NCBI GenBank assembly: GCA_964016885.1
Contig: OZ024751.1
Location: 29,636,001 to 29,700,000, forward strand
Length of the DNA stretch: 64,000 bases
DNA from: Eledone cirrhosa
Taxonomy: Eukaryota
Direction: 5' to 3'
Shown in pieces: positions 19,531-52,197 of this stretch. A model generated the notes under the pieces. That model was not told the origin of the DNA and ran no database searches. It saw only the letters and a program-made list of their open reading frames with translations. The translations under genes were made by a program, and so were the position numbers. Every line of letters begins with the position of its first letter. Position 1 is the first letter of the stretch.

Positions 19531-19584
19531 TATATATAGATAAGCAGGAACGAAGTCAAGGTTGCACCATAAATGAACTTTAAA

Positions 19585-19674
19585 GCATATGGCAATGGTT
19601 TCGATATTGATCAGCTGAAGGTTCAAGCATAATTGTCGGGGCCCAACAAAGCATTGCTATCTCATCAGATATGC
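19585..19674 (-). ncRNA. Type-I hammerhead-like motif with 59-nt helix II (16.1 is C instead of U)
   Basis: Sense: GCATAT CTGATGA GATA..51 nt..TATC GAAA C CATT GCC ATATGC. Helix I has 6 perfect bp. Confidence 0.65.
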
Positions 19675-19763
19675 CATCATAGGTACAGAACACATTGAAA
19701 CTGTAACTATAGTTACACACACACAAACACACATATATATGCGTGTGTGTGTATATATATATA

Positions 19764-21197
19764 GCATGGGTTAGACAATATTATGGCAGAGAGAATATTA
19801 ACACAAATGATTAGAGAAAGGGTCAAATTAGATGAGATGCAGTTTGGTTTTGTGCCTGGGAAAAGTACAACAGATGCCCTCTTCTTAGTGAGGCAACTAC
19901 AAGAGAAGTTCTTAAAGAAGTATAAGCCATGAAGCATAGCTTTTGTTGACCTAGAGAAGGCCTTTGATAGGTACCCCGATCTGTCATCTGGTGGTCCCGA
20001 AGGAAACTAGGTGTAGAGAAATGGCTTGTGAGGGCAGTGCAAGCTATGTACAGGGGTGCTGTCAGTAAAGTGAGACTAGGTATGGAGTTTAGTGGAGAAT
20101 TCCAGATACAAGTAGGTGTAAATCAGGGTTCGGTCCTCTGCCCGCTCTTGTTCATTATAGTCCTCCAAGCCATAAGAGAGGAGTTTAAGACTGGATGCCC
20201 ATGGGAATTTCTCTATGCTGATGATCTGGTTCTTATAGCAGAATCAGTAGAAGAGCTAGAGAATAAATTCTGGCTATGGAAACAGCAGTTGGAATGAAGA
20301 GGACTGAGAGTGAACATAGCTAAGACAAAAGTGTTGATAAGTAGAAGAAAGGACAATACTCCGATTCCATCAGGGAAATAGCCATGTTCGATATGTAGGA
20401 AAGGAACTGGCGTAAATTCTATAAAATGTGCACAATGCAGACCTTGGGTACACAAGAGATGTAGTGGGATAGCAGGCAAGCTAACAGGTAGGGAAAACTA
20501 CGTATGCAGTAGATGTACAGGGAAAGTTGGCAGTAGTAATCACAATGATAGACACACTTTTCCAATGCAGGTGGGTTCTTTAGAAGTGGTTGATAGCTTC
20601 TGGTACCTAGGTGATCAGATTAGCATGGGAGGGGGGGGGGTTCCGAGGCCATAGTATCTAGAATAAGGACGGCTTGGAAGAAGTTTAGGGAGCTGCTTCC
20701 TTTGTTGACAAAGAAGGGTTTCTCCTTGCATATGAAAGGATGGTTATAAGATGCCTGTGTGAGATGCGCGATGCTGCATGGTAGTGAGACATGGGCAGCA
20801 ACTGCAGAGGATATGCAATGGCTGGAGAGAAATGAAGCAAGTATGCTCCGTTGGATGTGCAACATCAATGTGCGTGAACAACCAAGCATAGTCGAGTTGA
20901 GAAAGAAACTGGGTATAAGAGGGATAAGTTGTGGTGTGCAGGAGAGCAGGCTGAGATGTGATGTGCATGGAGGATGAGCGCTGGGTAAAGAAGTGCCAAG
21001 AAATCCCAGTAGAAGGAAGACGCAGTAGAGGTAGACCACATAAAACATGGGCGGAGGTGGTGAGAGCAGACCTAAGATCACTGAAACTCACCGAGGAGAT
21101 GACGAAGGACCGTGACAAGTGGTGAGATGCTGTGCTGAATAGGACCCGTCCAACCCTTGCAAGCAGGGAAAAGCGGAGGTAAAATGATGATGATGAT
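19764..21197 (+). pseudogene. RTE LINE (family A) 3' half: reverse transcriptase, PHD-like finger, C-terminus and tail
   Basis: QFGFVPGKSTTDA, FVDLEKAFD, GVNQGSVLCPLLF, LYADDL, FWYLGD motifs, with stops and frameshifts; (TGA)n tail. Confidence 0.95.
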
Positions 21198-21248
21198 ATA
21201 TATATCACAAAAAAAAAGAATCAGTGTTGCGACGAATGGAATTTATTG

Positions 21249-21344
21249 GACATATTACAATCGTTTCACTGGCGACCAGCTCGAGGCACAATTGATGTGA
21301 TGATCGAACCTGACTCTGAAAATCGCAAGGTCCTCAGATACATC
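21249..21344 (-). ncRNA. Type-I hammerhead-like motif with 63-nt helix II, in a Penelope-like remnant (21225-21450)
   Basis: Sense: GATGTAT CTGAGGA cCTTGCGA...TCGCCAGt GAAA C GATT GTA ATATGTC, then AATAAA. Confidence 0.7.
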
Positions 21345-21537
21345 TTGATTTTACGAAGCAGATTTTTTGTGCTATCATACTCTGCTCAGTCAGAGCAGCG
21401 AGTGCTCAAACGGCCTACCGCATACGGACGCTTTAAGCATCCAACACCAATTATATATATATATACGTATATCTATATATATGTATATATATATATGTAT
21501 ATATATATATATAAATATAGATATATGTGTATATATG

Positions 21538-21573
<36 letters not shown>

Positions 21574-21992
21574 CCATATTTGCATCACTAGAAAGATGTC
21601 ATCCTAATTCTTTTTAACCTCAGACAAAAGAAAAAAGCAATTTTTGATGTGTACCTTGATTGATGAGCTGAAATAAGGCAAGAATTATCTACCCTCGTAT
21701 TTTCATTGATGTCCGTTAGGAGGGAGTGTAATTGAAGATGAGTGCTTGACAAGAAATAGTTCAAATAGAACTTCATCACTTTTTGTTCAGAGAGAATGGT
21801 CTTTGGGGGATTCTTAATTTTCATAGGATATAAGTTCTCTAGATAGAGATTAGAATAGAGAGGAAATTGGTCAGGAAATTGAGTAGCTGATGGCTAGGTT
21901 CTCTCTCTATAGATTCTATATACTTGTACTGTGTGGTAAGGTGTAATTCTGTATAGCATATATACATATACACTTGTGTATATGTGTGTGTT

Positions 21993-22034
<42 letters not shown>

Positions 22035-22053
22035 TAGGGAGACACAAAGCAAA

Positions 22054-22085
<32 letters not shown>

Positions 22086-22110
22086 GTATGTATATATATG
22101 TATATATATG

Positions 22111-22169
<59 letters not shown>

Positions 22170-22241
22170 GTGTGTGTATATATGCATATTTGTCAGTCTA
22201 TGAGAATCTCTGATGTATTCTCTATTTCTATGGACCTTTAA

Positions 22242-22308
<67 letters not shown>

Positions 22309-22421
22309 GCTCAAATTTGTTGTTGGAGTCCTTTGTATATAGCAGTATAAGCATATCTTCATTTGAGTATGTGTTTAATGTATATTCTAGCAAATGTCTC
22401 ATTGGTTAATATGTTTGTATG

Positions 22422-22479
<58 letters not shown>

Positions 22480-22591
22480 CATACATACATACTTTGTTAG
22501 TTTCAGAAGATCCCATTAAGGGTGAAAGCAGCGATTCTTTGCTTAAACTTTAATCTGTTATTTTAATAAATATATATATATATATATATAT

Positions 22592-23370
22592 CGTCCCACC
22601 CTTGCAAGCAGGGAAAAGCGGACGTAAAATGATGATGATGATGATGATGATGATATATATATATATATATATATTGGCCTTACTCGATAACAAGGAGGCA
22701 GCCATTATATATATATATATATATAGAGATAGATAGACAATATGCCACACCCTCCCACTGCAAGGTGGTCGTGGAGGTGCCACAACAAAAAAGCCCCCAG
22801 CCCACACTGTAAAGTGGACGTGTAGGCGCCACGAAAAAGCACCCAGCACTCACTATAAATGAGGTTGGTGTTAGGAAGGGCATCCAGCTGTAGAAATCAA
22901 ACCAAATCAGTTCCTGTATGAGCAAGGCATGGTCAGCCGACCAGGCACTGGCCACAACAGCACAACCCGTCTAACCCATGCTAGCGTGGAAGAACGGACG
23001 TAACACGGTGATGATGATATATATATCATCATCATCATCATTACCGTTTAGTGTCCATTTTCCATGCGTTGTCCACATCGTGAGACTAGTCTGGCCAGAA
23101 TTGGCTACACTGTACCTTGCTTCGACAGGACTGTAAATTGGCTGACGATTTTACAGCTGGATGTCCTTCCTAACACCAACCACATTTACAGTGTGGAACA
23201 TATATATATATATATATCATCATCATCGTTTGATGTCCATCTTCCACGCTAGCATGGGTTGGACAGGTTTGGTCAGGTGACCATGTCTCACTCATATAAA
23301 ACTGTTTCTGGCAGGTTTTTTTCTATGGCTGAATGCCCTTCCTAATGCCAACCACATTTACACATATAGA
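22592..23370. mobile_element. Cluster of RTE tails and bipartite RTE-derived elements in both orientations
   Basis: GGTTGGTGTTAGGAAGGGCATCCAGCTGTA motif plus CCCATGCTAGC(A/G)TGG tails. Confidence 0.75.
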
Positions 23371-23405
23371 TATACACTCATGTAGATACACACTCATACA
23401 TACAC

Positions 23406-23476
<71 letters not shown>

Positions 23477-23654
23477 GACAGAGCCTATTTAAATATGTTA
23501 GTGTTGCAAATCTTTACCTATCTTATTATCTTCGGTTTATTGCAGAACTCCTTTCACCATCTCTCACATTTACATATCTTTATTCTGATTCATTCCAATT
23601 CATTTTCAAACATTTTCAATTAAATTAACTTTGTCTGTGTGAATCCTTGTGAAA

Positions 23655-24145
23655 TTTCTGTTGCTATACTATCTATGTAGAGTGTGTGGTCATAGAAGTT
23701 CTATTATTATACTATCCATGTATATTGTGTGGTGTGTGTTTAGTGGTGGTTCTATTGCTATTCTATTTACATAGAGTGTGTGGTGGTAGAATTTCTATAG
23801 CTAGAGTATCTGTGTAGAGTATGAGATTGAATTTATATTTCTATACTATGTAGAGTATGTGTATGTTCCATGCTCTATTGCTACTCTATATCATGTAATA
23901 TGTGTGGTAGAAGTTCTATTTCCATACCATCTATGTAGATGTGTGTGGTGGTAGAAATTCTACAGTTGTACTATCAATGTAGAGTGTGTGGTAGAATTTC
24001 TAGGACTATATTATGTAGTGTGTGGTGGGGGTAAGTTCTATTGCTATACTATATTATGTAGAATGTGTGAAGTAGTGCAAGTCAAGTCCCATTTCTATAT
24101 CATGTAGAATGTGTGCATGGTAGAGGTTCTATTGTTATTCTAGTT
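23655..24145. repeat. Degenerate ~40-45-bp minisatellite
   Basis: TTCTATTGCTATACTATCTATGTAGAGTGTGTGGTAGAA-like units. Confidence 0.8.
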
Positions 24146-24892
24146 GTATTATAACTGTCTCAGATTTGATCATGTTCCTAATGAATTGCGAATTACATTA
24201 AAACTCTCTCGCTCATTCCTTTTTTCTTTCTTTCTCTCAATATGTCTCTTCCTCACTTTTTTTTCACTCTTTTTGTTTTCTCCCTCTCTCTCACTCTCTT
24301 TATCTTTCTCCCTTTCCCTATGTCCCTCCCTCCCTTTCACACACACTAACCTCCCTCTCTCCCACAAAAAACCCTCACCCAGTGCTCACACTATACCCTA
24401 TCCACTTTCTCAATGAAATTAGAAAAAAAGACAACTGAAAAATATATATTTATTATATTGGATTAGCTAATATAATTCTTTAATCAAATGAAAGCCAAAA
24501 TATTTTTCTTTCGAGATGTTTGGGGAGGAAAAAAAAATAAAAGAATTATTCAAGGGAAGTAATCAATGGCTACATAAATAAGTGAAACAAGGAGCTGATC
24601 TGACATATCTTTGTTTTGTTATTTTTACAATAGGATGTGATACATCACAACTAATAAAAATCTTCTCATACATTCTCTGAAAGTCATCAGATATATTTAT
24701 TACATTTTCACTGATGAAAATCTCTCAAAGAATCTTTTATACTTTGGCTTATGTTTAATATCGTTATTACATTTCATTTCTATTATAAATAAATTGTATT
24801 TTATTTTATTGTGGGTATATTTAGTTGTCTATTTTGTTTTTATTAATTTATTTATTTTATTTATTTTATTTTATTTTGTGTATCCATAGTTT

Positions 24893-25165
24893 ATTTAAAG
24901 TGCTTTTATTAACACTAACTAAAACTGTTTATCTAGAAGCTATCAACTACTTCTAAGGAGTCCTCTGAGCACTTGAAAGAATTTATTTTATGGGTGCTTT
25001 TAGTGTTTAGTGTGTTTATTACTATTTTATTTTGTGTAGGAATATGTGTAATATATTTAAAGTGTTATATTGAACACTAACTAAAATTATTTATCTAGAA
25101 GCTATCAACTACTTCTAAGGGTCATATAAACATTTGAGAGAACTTATCATATGGGTGCTTTAACT
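24893..25165. repeat. ~162-bp tandem duplication
   Basis: AACACTAACTAAAA.T.TTTATCTAGAAGCTATCAACTACTTCTAAGG occurs twice. Confidence 0.8.
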
Positions 25166-25314
25166 ATACCTGTGTGTATCTGTTATACACAGAGTCTTTC
25201 TTTTCTGTGAACTGTGTTTGCAATTCTCCTACATCTCTAGAGCAATCATCAATTCCATATATATATATATGGAATTGTATAAGAAAATAATTTTTTTCTT
25301 ATACCATTTTAAGA

Positions 25315-25401
25315 GGGTCCGTCGAGCTGCCGATTATTGAGTTGGGTAAGATCGATACAGATCGAACCTTGAGCTGATCAGTGCCGAAACGCGCGTCACC
25401 T
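25315..25401 (+). ncRNA. Variant or degenerate hammerhead-like motif with 60-nt helix II, in a Penelope-like remnant (25300-25555)
   Basis: GGGT CCGTCGA G..58 nt..C GAAA C GCGC GTC ACCT, then AATAAA. The core deviates from CTGANGA. Confidence 0.5.
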
Positions 25402-25956
25402 ACCAATAAATGTAATGAAGGAGTAACCAATCGTCCTTGTTATCCTTTCAATATATTACACTCTGTATAGCTCTACACCTCAACACAGAAGTGAACCTAA
25501 ACATCGAGTGCTCACCCAGGTGAACCTGCAGTAACTCCAAGTTACACTCCCTAAATATATATATATACCATTTCTACCTCCTCTATTTTTGAATATTGAG
25601 CACGACCATTTATCATAAATAGTAAAGTCATGTCTGTTTTTTCTTCTCTTCCTAAATTTGTGGTCTTTGCTAGCTTTATTTTACTTAGCTTTAACACTTT
25701 TCTTACCATATTCCAAACGAAATAAGCTGCCTAATTACAGTGTGTTTTATTAGAAATATGGTAATAAAATGGTTAACATAAAGGCACTTGTCTGTCCTAG
25801 TGGTTAGCATGTTGGGCTTACAAACATGAAGTCATAAGTTTAATTCCAAGACCAGGTAACATATAGTGTCGTGAGCAAGACACTTTATTTTACATCATTC
25901 AGCTATTGCAGCAGCTTGGCGTTAGCTCTGGGCTGGACTAACACCCTGTCTCTTAA

Positions 25957-37964: not shown

Positions 37965-38328
37965 TTTATTGGCCTTGTTCCTAATGTAGAACACCTTACT
38001 ATCCAAGGTGGACTTTGCCAACTATCCTTCCAGTGTTGATAAAATAAGTACCAGTCAAATACTGAGGTTGATATAATCGATTTACCCACTCTGCACCCTT
38101 CACTTAGTTGATGGCCTTCTGCCTAAATTAGAAATCATTTGGATTGGCAGTATCGGTAGAGGGTCGGACGCCATGCTTTGACGCATAGAGTTACGGCCCT
38201 TGCCATTCTGAGTTCAAATCCCGGCCGAGGTTAACTTTGCCTTTCATCCTTACAGGGTTGATAAAATAAAGTACCAGTAATGTACTGGGGTAATTGCTGG
38301 CCTTGTGCCAACAGTAGAAACAATTATT
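37965..38328 (+). mobile_element. Two SINE copies abutting an RTE fragment
   Basis: Full Deu/Nin-like copy at 38140-38328. Confidence 0.85.
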
Positions 38329-39390
38329 TTACATGTGGCCGGTGCTCTGGTGCAATAAGTAGCAGCAAGTGCCCACAAAATACTAGCTCTTTCAATTGCG
38401 CAGAGGGTTCTATAGAAATAGTGGACAGCTTCCGTTACCTGGGCGATAAAATCAGCAGTGGGGGAGGGTGCTCTGAAAGTACTGTAGCTAGAGTCAGAAC
38501 TGGTTGGAAAAAGTTCAGAGAGCTTATACCACTATTAGCTGCTAAAGGGTTCTCCCTAAAAATGAAAGGCAGGTTGTACGATGCCTGCATACGAACAGCA
38601 ATGCTGCATGGCAGTGAGACCTGGGCATTGTGTGCAGAGGATATACGCAGACTAGAGAGGAACGAAGCTTGCATGCTCCACTGGATGTGTAACAGTAATA
38701 TACGTGAACGGCAAAGCATAAACGAACTAAGGAAAAAATTAGAGATAAGAGGGATCAGATGTTGTTTACTCGAGAGAAGGCTACGTTGGTATGGACACGT
38801 GATGCGCATGAAAGTCGATAGCTGTATAACAAAGTGCAGGGCAATAAAGATAGACGGTAGTCACGGAATAGGCAGACCTAGAAAAACCTGGGACGAGCTG
38901 ATAAACTCCGACATCACACACTTACACCTCTCCAAGACAATGTCACTGGACCGAGACCTTTGGCGGTACTCAGTAACAGAGAAGACCCGCCTTACCTAAA
39001 TATATAGTAAAACCTACTCCAGCCAGTAGGCATCTCTAACAAAATACACCCCCGTCCCACCACCACCACCCCCACCCCATCCACACCACCCCGTTCTATG
39101 TAAAGTTATGTTGGTGCCGCGCCATCGAGGCCGAAACAAATGAGATCGTGTAGGTGTCACGACAAAAAAACACACAGTCCACGCTGTAATGTGGCCGTGT
39201 AGGCAACACGGTAAAAACCTCCCAGACCCACACTGTAAATGTGGTTGGTGTTAGGAAGGGCATCCAACTGTAGAAAACCTGCCAGACAGTCCTATGCGAG
39301 CAAGACAACCACTCTTGCCTCAAGTGGGACTACCCCCGTCCAAACCCATGCAAGCATGGAACACGGACGTTAAACGTTGATGATGATGAT
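38329..39390 (+). mobile_element. RTE LINE (family B) 5'-truncated copy with an uninterrupted C-terminal ORF to 38999
   Basis: TCGRC...VDSFRYLGD...AMLHGSETWA...RRLRWYGHVMRM...GRPRKTW. The ORF-track Met lies in the upstream SINE. Confidence 0.95.
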
Positions 39391-42599: not shown

Positions 42600-42798
42600 C
42601 AATTGTCAAACTGAAACCACTCTGGATAGATAAGACAAGAACACCATTCTCAGATCAGAAATAAAACTCCTGCATGTGTTGATCCTATCCATTTTTATAT
42701 CTGCATGTGAGCCATGGAGCTTGGGCGCTGAACAGCAAAGAAAGATCCAAACAGGGGAGATGAAATGTTATAGAAGAATCTTAGGAATCTCGTACACA
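42600..42798 (+). mobile_element. RTE/BovB-like LINE fragment
   Basis: LILSIFISACEPWSL...IQTGEMKCYRRILGISYT. Confidence 0.7.
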
Positions 42799-42799
42799 G

Positions 42800-43709
42800 G
42801 GTCTTTCGGCTGGTATGGCAAGGCACTGAGTCTTGCTGCCACACGTACGGCCTACCTGCAGCTACCTGGTAGATCCAGGGCTTTACTACCTCGCTCAGAA
42901 CGCGGATGTAGCCATCAGTGTTCAGCTTGAGGCCCTCAGGGAAGAAGTGAGGTGGCATGATGTCACCTTGACTGCTGACGACACCTAAGATCAATGTTGT
43001 CGCTGGAAACTTTGTCTGCATGACTCTGGGCATGTCTTTGGATGAGACAGCGAGCCACCTGTTGTTCTGGGAGTTGATCCACTGGTCTTGGCAGAAGTTG
43101 TTCTCGTCGGAGAAAAACCACAGCATGTCTGGCTCCAGTGGGTGTTTCAACTTGTTGATCAGCTTCTTTGCATGCTTCAGTCGCTTTTCTTGCATCGCCT
43201 TTGACAGAAATTGTCCTTTCCTCATCTTGTATGAAATGTAGCGAATGTCTTCATGTACCACCAGCCTAATGAGCTTTTCATCCACGCCTTTCTCCCTTGC
43301 AATGGCACGCATCGACTTGCTAGGTTCATTGTTGATGATATCCTGAACTTCAGCGACCAACTTGGGCGTTCTGAAGGCGTCAGATCGTCGATCATGTGTT
43401 TTCCTCTCTGATGTTGCTTCGTAGTCGAATCCTGAATCTTCCAATTCCTTTCTGACCTTTTCCACCATTCTCCTGCTGATGCTGAGAAAGTCTGAAATTT
43501 CCTTATTTGTCCTCCCGGCGCGGATTCCAAGAAGAACTCCGTGTCTCTTCCACAAATTTGGAGGTTCAAAATTATTCATAATCAATTATTCTGAAAATAA
43601 ATAATGGAAATATAGTCACTGTTTTTATGAAGACAAGAGTGACAACGGAAGTAAAAAAAATTTGCATAAAATTAGCAGTTGAAAATTGCAAACAAATATC
43701 GTCCACACC

Positions 43710-50128: not shown

Positions 50129-52197
50129 CTAAGTCCAGTAAGACAACTTCCCTAGTGCTGGTGGCACAAATAAAAACACCCAGTCCATGCTGTAAAATGG
50201 AGGGGTAGATAGGGCCCTTGAGTCCAGTAAGACAACCTCTCTAGTGCTAGTGGCACGAATAAAAGCACCCAGTCCATGCTGTAAAATGGTGTTGGTGTTA
50301 GGAAGTGCATCCAACCAGTATAATAAAAAGCCAAAATTATGAGCACAACAAATAAGAATTGCAACAACTGCGTCAACAGCAATAACACTAACCATATTAG
50401 GGCTGCACACGGTTGTGGGATGGCTAGTGAGGCCATGTGTGAGAATTCCACGACCGTCATCAAGCAATCGCACAACAGGAAAAAGAACGGGACGTCGCAT
50501 CTCAGAGTTGCCACACTTTATGTTGGCACTCTAACAGGTAGATCTGGTGAGATTGCAGAGATGCTGGAGAGAAGGGATGTGGATGTGTCCTGTGTGCAAG
50601 AGGTGAGATGGAGAGGTGCCTCTGCAAGACTAATCACAGGCAAACATCGTAGTTATAAGCTTTTCTGGGTGGGTAATGATGATGGGTTAGGTGGGGTGGG
50701 CATATTACTGGCTGAGAGGTGGATCAATAAGACGATAGAGGTAGTTAGAGCTAGTGATAGAATAATTAAGCTTAGATTAGTTGTAGGCAAGAGACTACTG
50801 ACAATCATCTCTACCTATGCTCCCCAGGCAGGCCTAGGTAAAGAAGAGAAAGACGGCTTTTACGAGCAATGTTTACAGATAGCCTCAATGACAGAGGACA
50901 GGGACATCGTTATGCTAGCAGGGGACTTCAATGGACATGTCGGACAGCTCCAGGATGGATACACTGGGGTACATGGTGGGTACGGTTATGAAGGAGTGAG
51001 GCTTCTTGAATTTTGTGATGCAAATGCACTAACCATTTGCAAGACTAACTTCCAGAAGCCTACCAATCATCTAATAACCTACAAATCAGGCAAGCGCATA
51101 AGCCAGATTGACTTCCTGCTAGTTAGACAGCGAGACAGACGGATGGTGTCAAATACTAAGGCTTCCCCTGGTGAAGAATGTACTCCACAGCATAGGTTAG
51201 TCGTTAGTGACATCTCAGTAAGCAAGAGAAAGAATGAGACATACAGGAAGGTGTGGAAAAGAAAGGTCTGGAAGCTAAAAGACCTTTCATTAAAATATAA
51301 ATTTAGCAAAGCCCTTCAAGATGCGTACGATGAAAAAGAAGACGATTTAGAGTTGTATGACATAGATGATAACTGGAATGTCTTGCATGACAACTTACTA
51401 CTGGCTACTGAAGAAACTTGTGGTTGGGGCCGAGCTTCCACCAGACAGAGAGTGACCTGGTAGTGGAACAGCACGGTAGATAGGGCCATTAGAGACAAAA
51501 GACTGGCATGGAAAGCTTGGAAAAATGGTGGAAGTAGAGACGGATACACAGCCACTAAGAGAGAAGCTAGACGTCAGTTGTACTTAGCACGCAGGGAGGC
51601 TGAGAGTAGGAGGTTTGCCAATGTTCTGCGACGGGAAGATCAGAGGCGTGAGGTGTTCCACATTGCAAGGCAGTGTGTCAGTGAAAATCAGGATGTTGTT
51701 GGAGATAAGTGTGTCCGGAATGATGCTGGTGTACTTAGTGTCACGGATGATCAAAAGGAGGCAGCCTGGAAATGTCATTATGAGAGACTGATGAATGTAG
51801 AGAACGAATGGGACAGAGAGGAATTACCCCCAGTAGACAAGACAGAGGGACCAGCTATTGAGATTGACGAATATAGGGTACAAGAGGCAATTAAGGAAAT
51901 GAAGAATGGTAAGGAAGCTGGGCCGTCGGGGTTAGTTGCTGAGATGCTGAAGGCTTCAGGAGAAGTAGGCACTAAACTAGTTGCACGCATCATTAATCAA
52001 GCTATTGTCCTCAGCCCACTCTTGTTCATTATAGTCCTCCAAGCCATAATGGAGGAGTTTAAGACTGGATGCCCATGGTAACTTCTTTATGCTGATGATC
52101 TGGTTCTTATAGCAGAATCAGTAAAGGAGCTAGAGAATAAATTCTGGCTATGGAAACAGCAGTTGGAATCAAGAGGCCTGAGAGTGAACATAGCTAA
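50129..52197 (+). pseudogene. RTE LINE 5' part: 5' UTR with ~89-bp tandem module, APE endonuclease (50339-51463) and an internally deleted RT
   Basis: RVATLYVGTL, CVQEVRW, TYAPQ, AGDFNGHVG, QIDFLL, PQHRLV, GPSG, LSPLLF, LYADDL. Confidence 0.95.

Follow-up and report, generated by a model that had tools for sequence, protein, structure and literature searches.

A 64,000-nt stretch of the Eledone cirrhosa genome (contig OZ024751.1, positions 29,636,001–29,700,000; hereafter the window) contains three loci that resemble hammerhead ribozymes with a helix II of about 60 nt, which raises the question of what kind of element carries them and why part of so long an arm is shared. The three loci are 5′-truncated fragments of pseudo-long terminal repeats (pLTRs) from three subfamilies of Penelope-like elements (PLEs), and the motif is almost certainly a PLE pLTR hammerhead with an extended arm. 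A conserved internal loop lies within this arm, and we tentatively favour it as a putative binding site for the element's own reverse transcriptase (RT)/endonuclease protein.

The window loci and the elements that carry them

The first-pass annotation described three dispersed loci with a single layout, and this layout was recovered at each of them: the inserts between the CUGANGA-like box and GAAAC measure 59, 63 and 60 nt at loci 1, 2 and 3, and the 13-mer motif has exactly three exact occurrences in the window, each followed by GAAAC-N4-GYH. The loci were also described as otherwise dissimilar; they are in fact homologous subfamilies of PLE pLTRs (Table 1). As for the shared motif, a conserved portion stood, the true module being AGAGUC-RGG ... 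CCY-YGAGCU, whereas the GTTGGG patch and the C at position 5 turned out to be decay of single copies. Locus 1 is a decayed copy, in which U16.1 is C, AATAAA and the 5′ half of the module are mutated, and the cut site reads GCC versus GUC in its own family, a private change; its short 3′ end is common to its subfamily. The unusual CCGUCGA core of locus 3 (U4C and A6U) is fixed across subfamily F3y, its scissile bond is predicted to follow position 25397, and its pLTR shares 90.7% identity across 268 nt with the 5′ pLTR of the full-length element L211 (L-numbered names denote loci taken from the same 3.0-Gb genome). The AATAAA downstream is common to PLE hammerheads and not specific to these loci. 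Folded alone, the window copies do no better than shuffled sequences (z of 0.26, −1.16 and −1.40), so their structure must rest on comparison within the family.

Copies of the motif are 5′-truncated, dispersed or inverted and often arranged in head-to-head pairs, and they end at two points past the cut site, about 50–70 nt and about 135–170 nt. Truncation, inversion and two fixed end points correspond to the pLTR, inverted copy and tail that are the signature of PLEs (PMC3846280, PMC8557442). Most tails, read by eye without a count, finish in (TA)n, the target preference of the Hydra clade of PLEs. In L211, L017 and L265, the tail between the two 3′ end points measures about 80–105 nt and ends at TA-rich spots of the element itself.

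In the lineage of locus 3, the motif flanks an open reading frame (ORF) on both sides in L141, which was reached by walking out from L140, and in L211, L212, L220 and L222, these four among 20 longer regions. L141 comprises hammerhead, ORF, long 3′ untranslated region and hammerhead over 3.8 kb, plus an inverted extra copy, and the elements measure 3.1–5 kb between pLTRs. The motif lies about 180–240 nt upstream of the ORF start within the 5′ pLTR and just before AATAAA in the 3′ pLTR; among 30 loci found by the ORF N-terminus, it was present 337–386 nt upstream on the same strand in seven, an eighth regular-expression match being false. For subfamily F2, to which locus 2 belongs, a hammerhead is followed by a tail and a related Hydra-type ORF in two of the six loci checked (L278 and L285), on the 5′ side only, and in L218 a copy of subfamily FM follows the ORF. 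The loci examined provided no link between an ORF and the locus 1 subfamilies (F1). The proposal that these are type I hammerheads of PLEs with a long, partly conserved helix II is supported, and motif copies flank Penelope ORFs of the RT/GIY-YIG type.

Regular expressions and reading of L207, L208 and L218 identified RW[R/K], DKT, YRDD, a CxCx5C linker, CxxC and CxH in these ORFs, with RWR in place of RWK and CCHH absent as judged by eye; the frame in L207 (L207:2514-5096) runs for 861 codons without a stop in the standard code. The RW[R/K], DKT, CxCx5C, CxxC and CxH motifs are marks of the Hydra clade (PMC8557442). Searches of Pfam (E 0.1) and PDB with the ORFs of L207:2514-5096, L218 and L173 returned no match, so the assignment rests on these motifs and on a by-eye likeness to Hydra-1_Obim, from which the ORFs probably belong to the Hydra clade. 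Since Hydra-type proteins match no Pfam family or PDB chain, profile searches miss this PLE clade. The three motif-linked ORFs are 60–62% identical over the RT core and group on one side of a 99/98 branch that separates them from L214 and L217, which have a 20-nt helix II, and from L173, which has another long loop, in a midpoint-rooted tree of eight rows from this genome only in which 55 of 500 label shuffles were equally clustered. Thirty PF01541 loci were tried as carriers and rejected; they belong to other PLE clades, and a true motif copy was near only one of the 30, probably as an independent insertion. L173 (L173:1256-7138; G000:C1:437199000-437208999) is a very young Hydra-type PLE with 784-codon frames in tandem at 3,531 bp, and all 150 scored matches of its family show 97–100% identity; its motif resembles a hammerhead but departs from the standard in the 5′ core box, with about 37 nt in loop II and a helix III that is long and palindromic.

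Further genomic copies had been anticipated, and the motif followed by GAAAC has 8,111 exact matches in the genome (4,098 + 4,013), with none for the reversed control. A pattern made of the core, a 50–75-nt gap and AATAAA only, without any insert sequence, gave 1,141 matches and none in its control, and both halves of the motif were present in 25 of 30 loci fetched in this way versus 20 of 6,000 shuffled spacers. Contigs from three sequencing runs agree in containing many motif copies, and the run labelled with another organism yielded only seven low-depth pieces. A metagenome scan returned six pattern matches and a viral scan one; we take these to be chance matches, because no hammerhead core lies upstream of any of them. 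There is thus no evidence of the motif outside this genome, the genomes of relatives not being among the data searched. As the annotation had also supposed, models of known hammerheads miss the motif: Rfam Hammerhead_1 (RF00163) reached at best 13.3 bits at locus 3, where it aligned to the 3′ half only, against a cut-off of 34, none of the 35 Rfam matches in eight other loci was a hammerhead, and no Rfam family passed its cut-off for the motif.

Table 1. Coordinates in the window of the three hammerhead motifs and of the pLTR fragments that contain them
Feature	Subfamily	Position	Strand	Description
Locus 1, hammerhead motif	F1a	19585..19674	minus	Helix I, CUGAUGA core, 59-nt helix II, GAAAC-N4-GCC
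Locus 1, entire solo pLTR fragment		19541..19699	minus	Ends ~50 nt past the cut site
Locus 2, hammerhead motif	F2	21249..21344	minus	CUGAGGA core, 63-nt helix II, module intact, GAAAC-GAUU-GUA, AATAAA
Locus 2, pLTR copy holding the motif		21202..21366	minus	Inverted, short-ended
Locus 2, tail fragment of the same F2 insertion	F2	21368..21452	plus	Forward; stops at (TA)n
Locus 3, hammerhead motif	F3y	25315..25401	plus	CCGUCGA core, 60-nt helix II, GAAAC-GCGC-GUC
Locus 3, conserved module		25338..25377	plus	5′ half, RGG/CCY helix, apical hairpin, 3′ half
Locus 3, entire 5′-truncated pLTR and tail		25277..25561	plus	Between (TA)n tracts; 28-nt palindrome at the 5′ junction

Structure and conservation of the helix II arm

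A motif filter yielded 140 copies, of which 111 were placed in 14 subfamilies of 1–19 copies each, an assignment that demanded a near-intact core, and 29 truncated or rearranged copies were left out. The subfamilies have the type I core (CUGANGA ... GAAA ... NUH) and the three-helix type I layout with an open-ended helix I. Loop III is GCGC, AAUU or AUAU in 11 of the 14 consensuses and near-palindromic in the other three, making a short palindromic helix and loop III; PLE hammerheads with a palindromic loop III are thought to cleave as dimers (PMC4209133). The insert measures 58–63 nt in all 14 consensuses, and the arm comprises, in order, a 9-bp proximal helix, a bulge of 2–4 nt on the 5′ side, AGAGUC opposite YGAGCU, an RGG/CCY helix and an apical hairpin, so that in every consensus the same 9 bp plus bulge separate the loop from the core.

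Helix I and proximal helix II covary. Among the consensuses, 71 of 84 cells are paired in helix I versus 58.4 after swapping strands, and 101 of 126 in proximal helix II versus 80.0 with the 3′ strands swapped among subfamilies, neither value being reached in any of 20,000 permutations; in 16 real copies, 85.2% of cells are paired against at most 36% in slid registers, and double changes occur at 14 pairs against 8.3 in shuffled data, all of these tests ignoring kinship among the sequences and alignment A1 being one column off in some F1 rows. The sense strand folds better than the antisense strand in 12 of the 14 consensuses. Within the module, the first RGG/CCY pair alone covaries, as A-U in seven, G-U in five and G-C in four of the 16 real copies.

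Mean pairwise identity among the 14 consensuses is 0.90 and 0.89 for the two halves of the module and 0.90 for the 5′ core box, compared with 0.52–0.59 for the helices (0.58 for helix I) and 0.43 for loop III, the values of about 0.90 for module and core box being inflated because copies were chosen by motif and core filters. FM, reached through a protein search, retains 11 of the 12 loop bases. The suggestion that the family is a distinct ribozyme subtype with an extra conserved domain therefore stands in part: the conserved module is there, but the core is of the ordinary PLE type and long loops II have already been published (PMC8557442). Nor is a long helix II special in itself in this genome, since the spacers of other hammerhead families range from 11 to about 60 nt.

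A long helix II of about 47–53 nt without the module occurs in other families (L101:1642, L092:6200, L039:3190, L098, L154, L219:1009, L134 and L176), and two single copies, L149:3648 and L162:121, have the same arm layout with an altered loop or a changed RGG/CCY helix and are possibly diverged relatives. We rejected a second hammerhead nested in the arm through the CUGAUC of the 3′ half, as G8 is missing and other subfamilies have CUGGUC or CUGUUC. A SECIS element (a selenocysteine insertion signal) was likewise rejected, its geometry failing by eye, with no Rfam match and 861 codons without UGA in L207, and loop A of the hairpin ribozyme, a kink-turn, a sarcin-ricin loop and a tetraloop receptor do not fit.

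A possible role for the conserved loop

Sequence-specific conservation of loop bases is expected of a recognition surface. Because the loop is conserved in sequence and not just in pairing, because the module follows one ORF clade and because another PLE hammerhead is protein-assisted, a site at which the internal loop of these truncated pLTRs would bind the element's own RT/endonuclease protein is the reading that we favour, although we hold it tentatively. The element would be transcribed through both pLTRs, and the two hammerheads would pair via their palindromic loops III in order to cleave; the element protein would bind the arm, aid its folding and start reverse transcription about 55–70 or 135–170 nt downstream, the hammerhead in the RNA being uncut or re-ligated. 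In the anole, a PLE hammerhead cleaves only with the element protein added, and cleavage mutants still insert (PMC11167929).

Whether cleavage is still required can be judged from the cores. Ten of the 14 consensus cores are exactly CUGANGA, three have U4C only and one has U4C plus A6U; F3a and FI are U4C, F3y has both changes, and FM, represented by one copy, has an extra core base. In the locus 3 lineage, 1,499 copies match a core-spanning pattern, and among the 100 matches listed, counted by eye, 19 read CUGA, 3 CCGA, 78 CCGU and none CUGU. The core has decayed stepwise, from CUGA through CCGA to CCGU, with the loop retained. We take U4C plus A6U to remove both bases of the U-turn, and the lineage crippled in this way is the most abundant and has spread widely. 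When 39 copies were chosen by the sequence that follows the cut site, 38 proved to span the site and one to start at it, so the templates were uncut or re-ligated at the hammerhead; 5′ ends show no accumulation at the cut site (1 of 39), ends further downstream being invisible with that anchor. As U4 and A6 are lost and 38 of 39 copies cross the cut site, cleavage is likely to be dispensable in the most abundant, core-decayed lineage, the youngest of the abundant ones. In vitro, U4C reduces activity and a natural C6 variant is weakly active (PMC3088659). On the 5′ side of the F2 hammerhead, copies in L013, L019, L279, L286, L290 and the window (21354-21366) start 30–45 nt upstream of the core and others reach further; this clustering possibly marks a transcription start, the ends being scattered and confounded by subfamily divergence.

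A number of observations weigh against a protein-binding loop. The RNA needed for insertion by the anole PLE starts at ORF position +20, with the cut site at +26, and helix II is not needed (PMC11167929). The module is missing from related Hydra-type families whose ORFs are long and intact (L214, L215 and L217, with a 20-nt spacer), and the very young L173 family thrives with a different long loop. The set of 14 families was motif-filtered, which inflates conservation, and single copies with altered loops exist (L149 and L162); the permutation tests ignore relatedness among subfamilies. Within the module most pairs are invariant, and covariation therefore lends no support to its fold, either a 4×4 loop or a 2×1 loop plus bulge. 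Retention of the loop in the core-decayed lineage is weak evidence because no more than about 10% divergence separates this lineage from its sister. A bolder extension of the protein-binding reading, which we regard as speculative and rather unlikely, is that helix II of one PLE lineage acquired by grafting a sequence-specific module for protein recognition, which made the ribozyme a scaffold for RT loading, that catalysis could then be dispensed with and disappeared from the most successful of the recent subfamilies, and that the hammerheads persist as recognition signals and not as enzymes.

The loop might instead act through RNA tertiary structure, docking on helix I, the A-rich strand that follows it or the partner hammerhead, and so take over the role of the usual contact between loops I and II in accelerating cleavage. 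We consider this unlikely, though it survives better than the other alternatives: helix I varies freely (identity 0.58) and the loop does not, there is no conserved complementary partner, and the loop persists where both U-turn bases of the core are lost. In its favour are the constant distance of 9 bp plus bulge between loop and core in all 14 consensuses, the higher activity that contacts between stems I and II give to natural hammerheads (PMC3088659) and the lack of the usual contacts in PLE hammerheads (PMC7761336).

Somewhat less probable still is a single chance elongation kept as a generic helix, the apparent conservation of the loop being due to shared ancestry and to the search filter. 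Spacers of 11 to about 60 nt across many hammerhead families of this genome, the motif filter applied to the family set and the loop variants in L149 and L162 would all be expected on this account. However, identity in flanking helices of equal ancestry has dropped to about 55%, both halves of the motif persist in 25 of 30 loci chosen without it, and FM has kept its loop (11 of 12 bases) although found through a protein search.

Binding by a host protein, such as an export, stability, translation or ligation factor, appears improbable. In its favour, the motif precedes the ORF start in the 5′ pLTR and stands directly before AATAAA in the 3′ pLTR, and host factors were suggested by Cervera and de la Peña (PMC4209133), but no Rfam family exceeds its cut-off, SECIS and kink-turn geometry are absent by eye and the L207 ORF is open for its 861 codons in the standard code. 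Equally improbable is that the two halves of the module are DNA-level promoter elements, since, although PLE promoters do reside in pLTRs (PMC6765202), the distance between the halves changes by several bases from one subfamily to another, A-U, G-U and G-C all occur at the adjoining pair, and in 12 of 14 consensuses the sense RNA has the better fold of the two strands.

Relation to known systems and neighbouring features

PLE hammerheads are known, and the long-arm variant with a conserved module is real and abundant and apparently new to the literature. The minimal and short-helix-III hammerheads in pLTRs of metazoan PLEs (Cervera and de la Peña 2014, PMC4209133) are reported with the same type I topology, CUGANGA/GAAA core, short helix I, palindromic loop III (the dimer model) and AU-rich 3′ flank, and likewise occur as thousands of dispersed and inverted copies in many covarying subfamilies per genome. 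They differ in helix II, published as about 4–8 bp with a short loop and here a 58–63-nt irregular stem with a conserved internal loop, and in that U4C plus A6U is fixed in one large lineage here, unlike in the hammerheads described there. Hydra-clade PLEs, including Hydra-1_Obim (Craig et al. 2021, PMC8557442), share the ORF motifs, the C-terminal GIY-YIG-like region, the (TA)n targets and the pLTR hammerhead; yet all Hydra hammerheads of File S2 in that source have a stem II of 3–7 bp and a loop of 3–10 nt, against an arm of 58–63 nt here, the length between pLTRs is typically <3 kb against 3.1–5 kb, and tails are 30–40 bp against about 80–105 nt. Two forms of the 3′ motif searched in the supplement of that paper gave no match.

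Longer loops are described elsewhere in the same paper. The non-Hydra elements PLE-X1_sMoe and PLE-X1_sTam (File S2, PMC8557442) have loops of about 30–35 nt, with core halves far apart as here, and eight 'HHR_half_core' Naiads have core halves 35–50 nt apart, comparable to the long arm; these are, however, single elements of other clades with different sequences, and no conserved internal module is reported for them. The Poseidon element PAc of Anolis (Frangieh et al. 2024, PMC11167929) shares the two 3′ end points (tail), hammerhead-uncut templates and AT-rich targets, and it is the source of the protein-assisted hammerhead model borrowed here, but it has a short helix II, belongs to another clade and does not need helix II for insertion in vitro. 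Rfam Hammerhead_1 (RF00163) and the animal non-LTR retrozymes share the core and the GAAAC-N4-GUC junction; unlike the tandem 150–300-nt non-coding repeats of retrozymes, the copies here are dispersed or inverted ends of coding elements, and we rejected a retrozyme identity on this ground. No description of the arm was found in the literature and the supplements of two papers, a scope without Repbase, Dfam, part of the PMC4209133 supplement and some key hammerhead literature, and the main text of a 2026 paper on Octopus vulgaris repeats, as far as it was accessible, does not mention hammerhead, ribozyme or Hydra.

The in vivo role of PLE hammerheads has been called 'still a mystery' (PMC7761336). 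The genome studied here holds a natural series, from related Hydra-type elements with a short helix II, through those with the long arm and conserved loop, to those in which the arm is kept and the core crippled. Some members have long intact ORFs, and the series makes cleavage and protein binding separable in one assay. Rfam and short-spacer descriptors, moreover, miss thousands of hammerhead motifs. Should the loop prove neutral, the finding would amount to a cataloguing note only.

Across the whole window, the Rfam matches listed (150 of 276) were all below cut-off and consisted of microRNA-like matches on simple repeats and one pestivirus-UTR row. A short hammerhead is repeated five times in L101:7568-9560 at a spacing of about 490 bp, which makes it a candidate for a tandem array of the retrozyme-like or satellite kind. 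Judged by eye from translations, locus 2 adjoins the 3′ end of a decayed fragment resembling the endonuclease/RT of a long interspersed nuclear element (window 19770-21195), further decayed fragments of this kind lie at 38265-38999 and 50327-52081, and a 296-codon frame at 42695-43585 on the minus strand is Tc1/mariner transposase-like.

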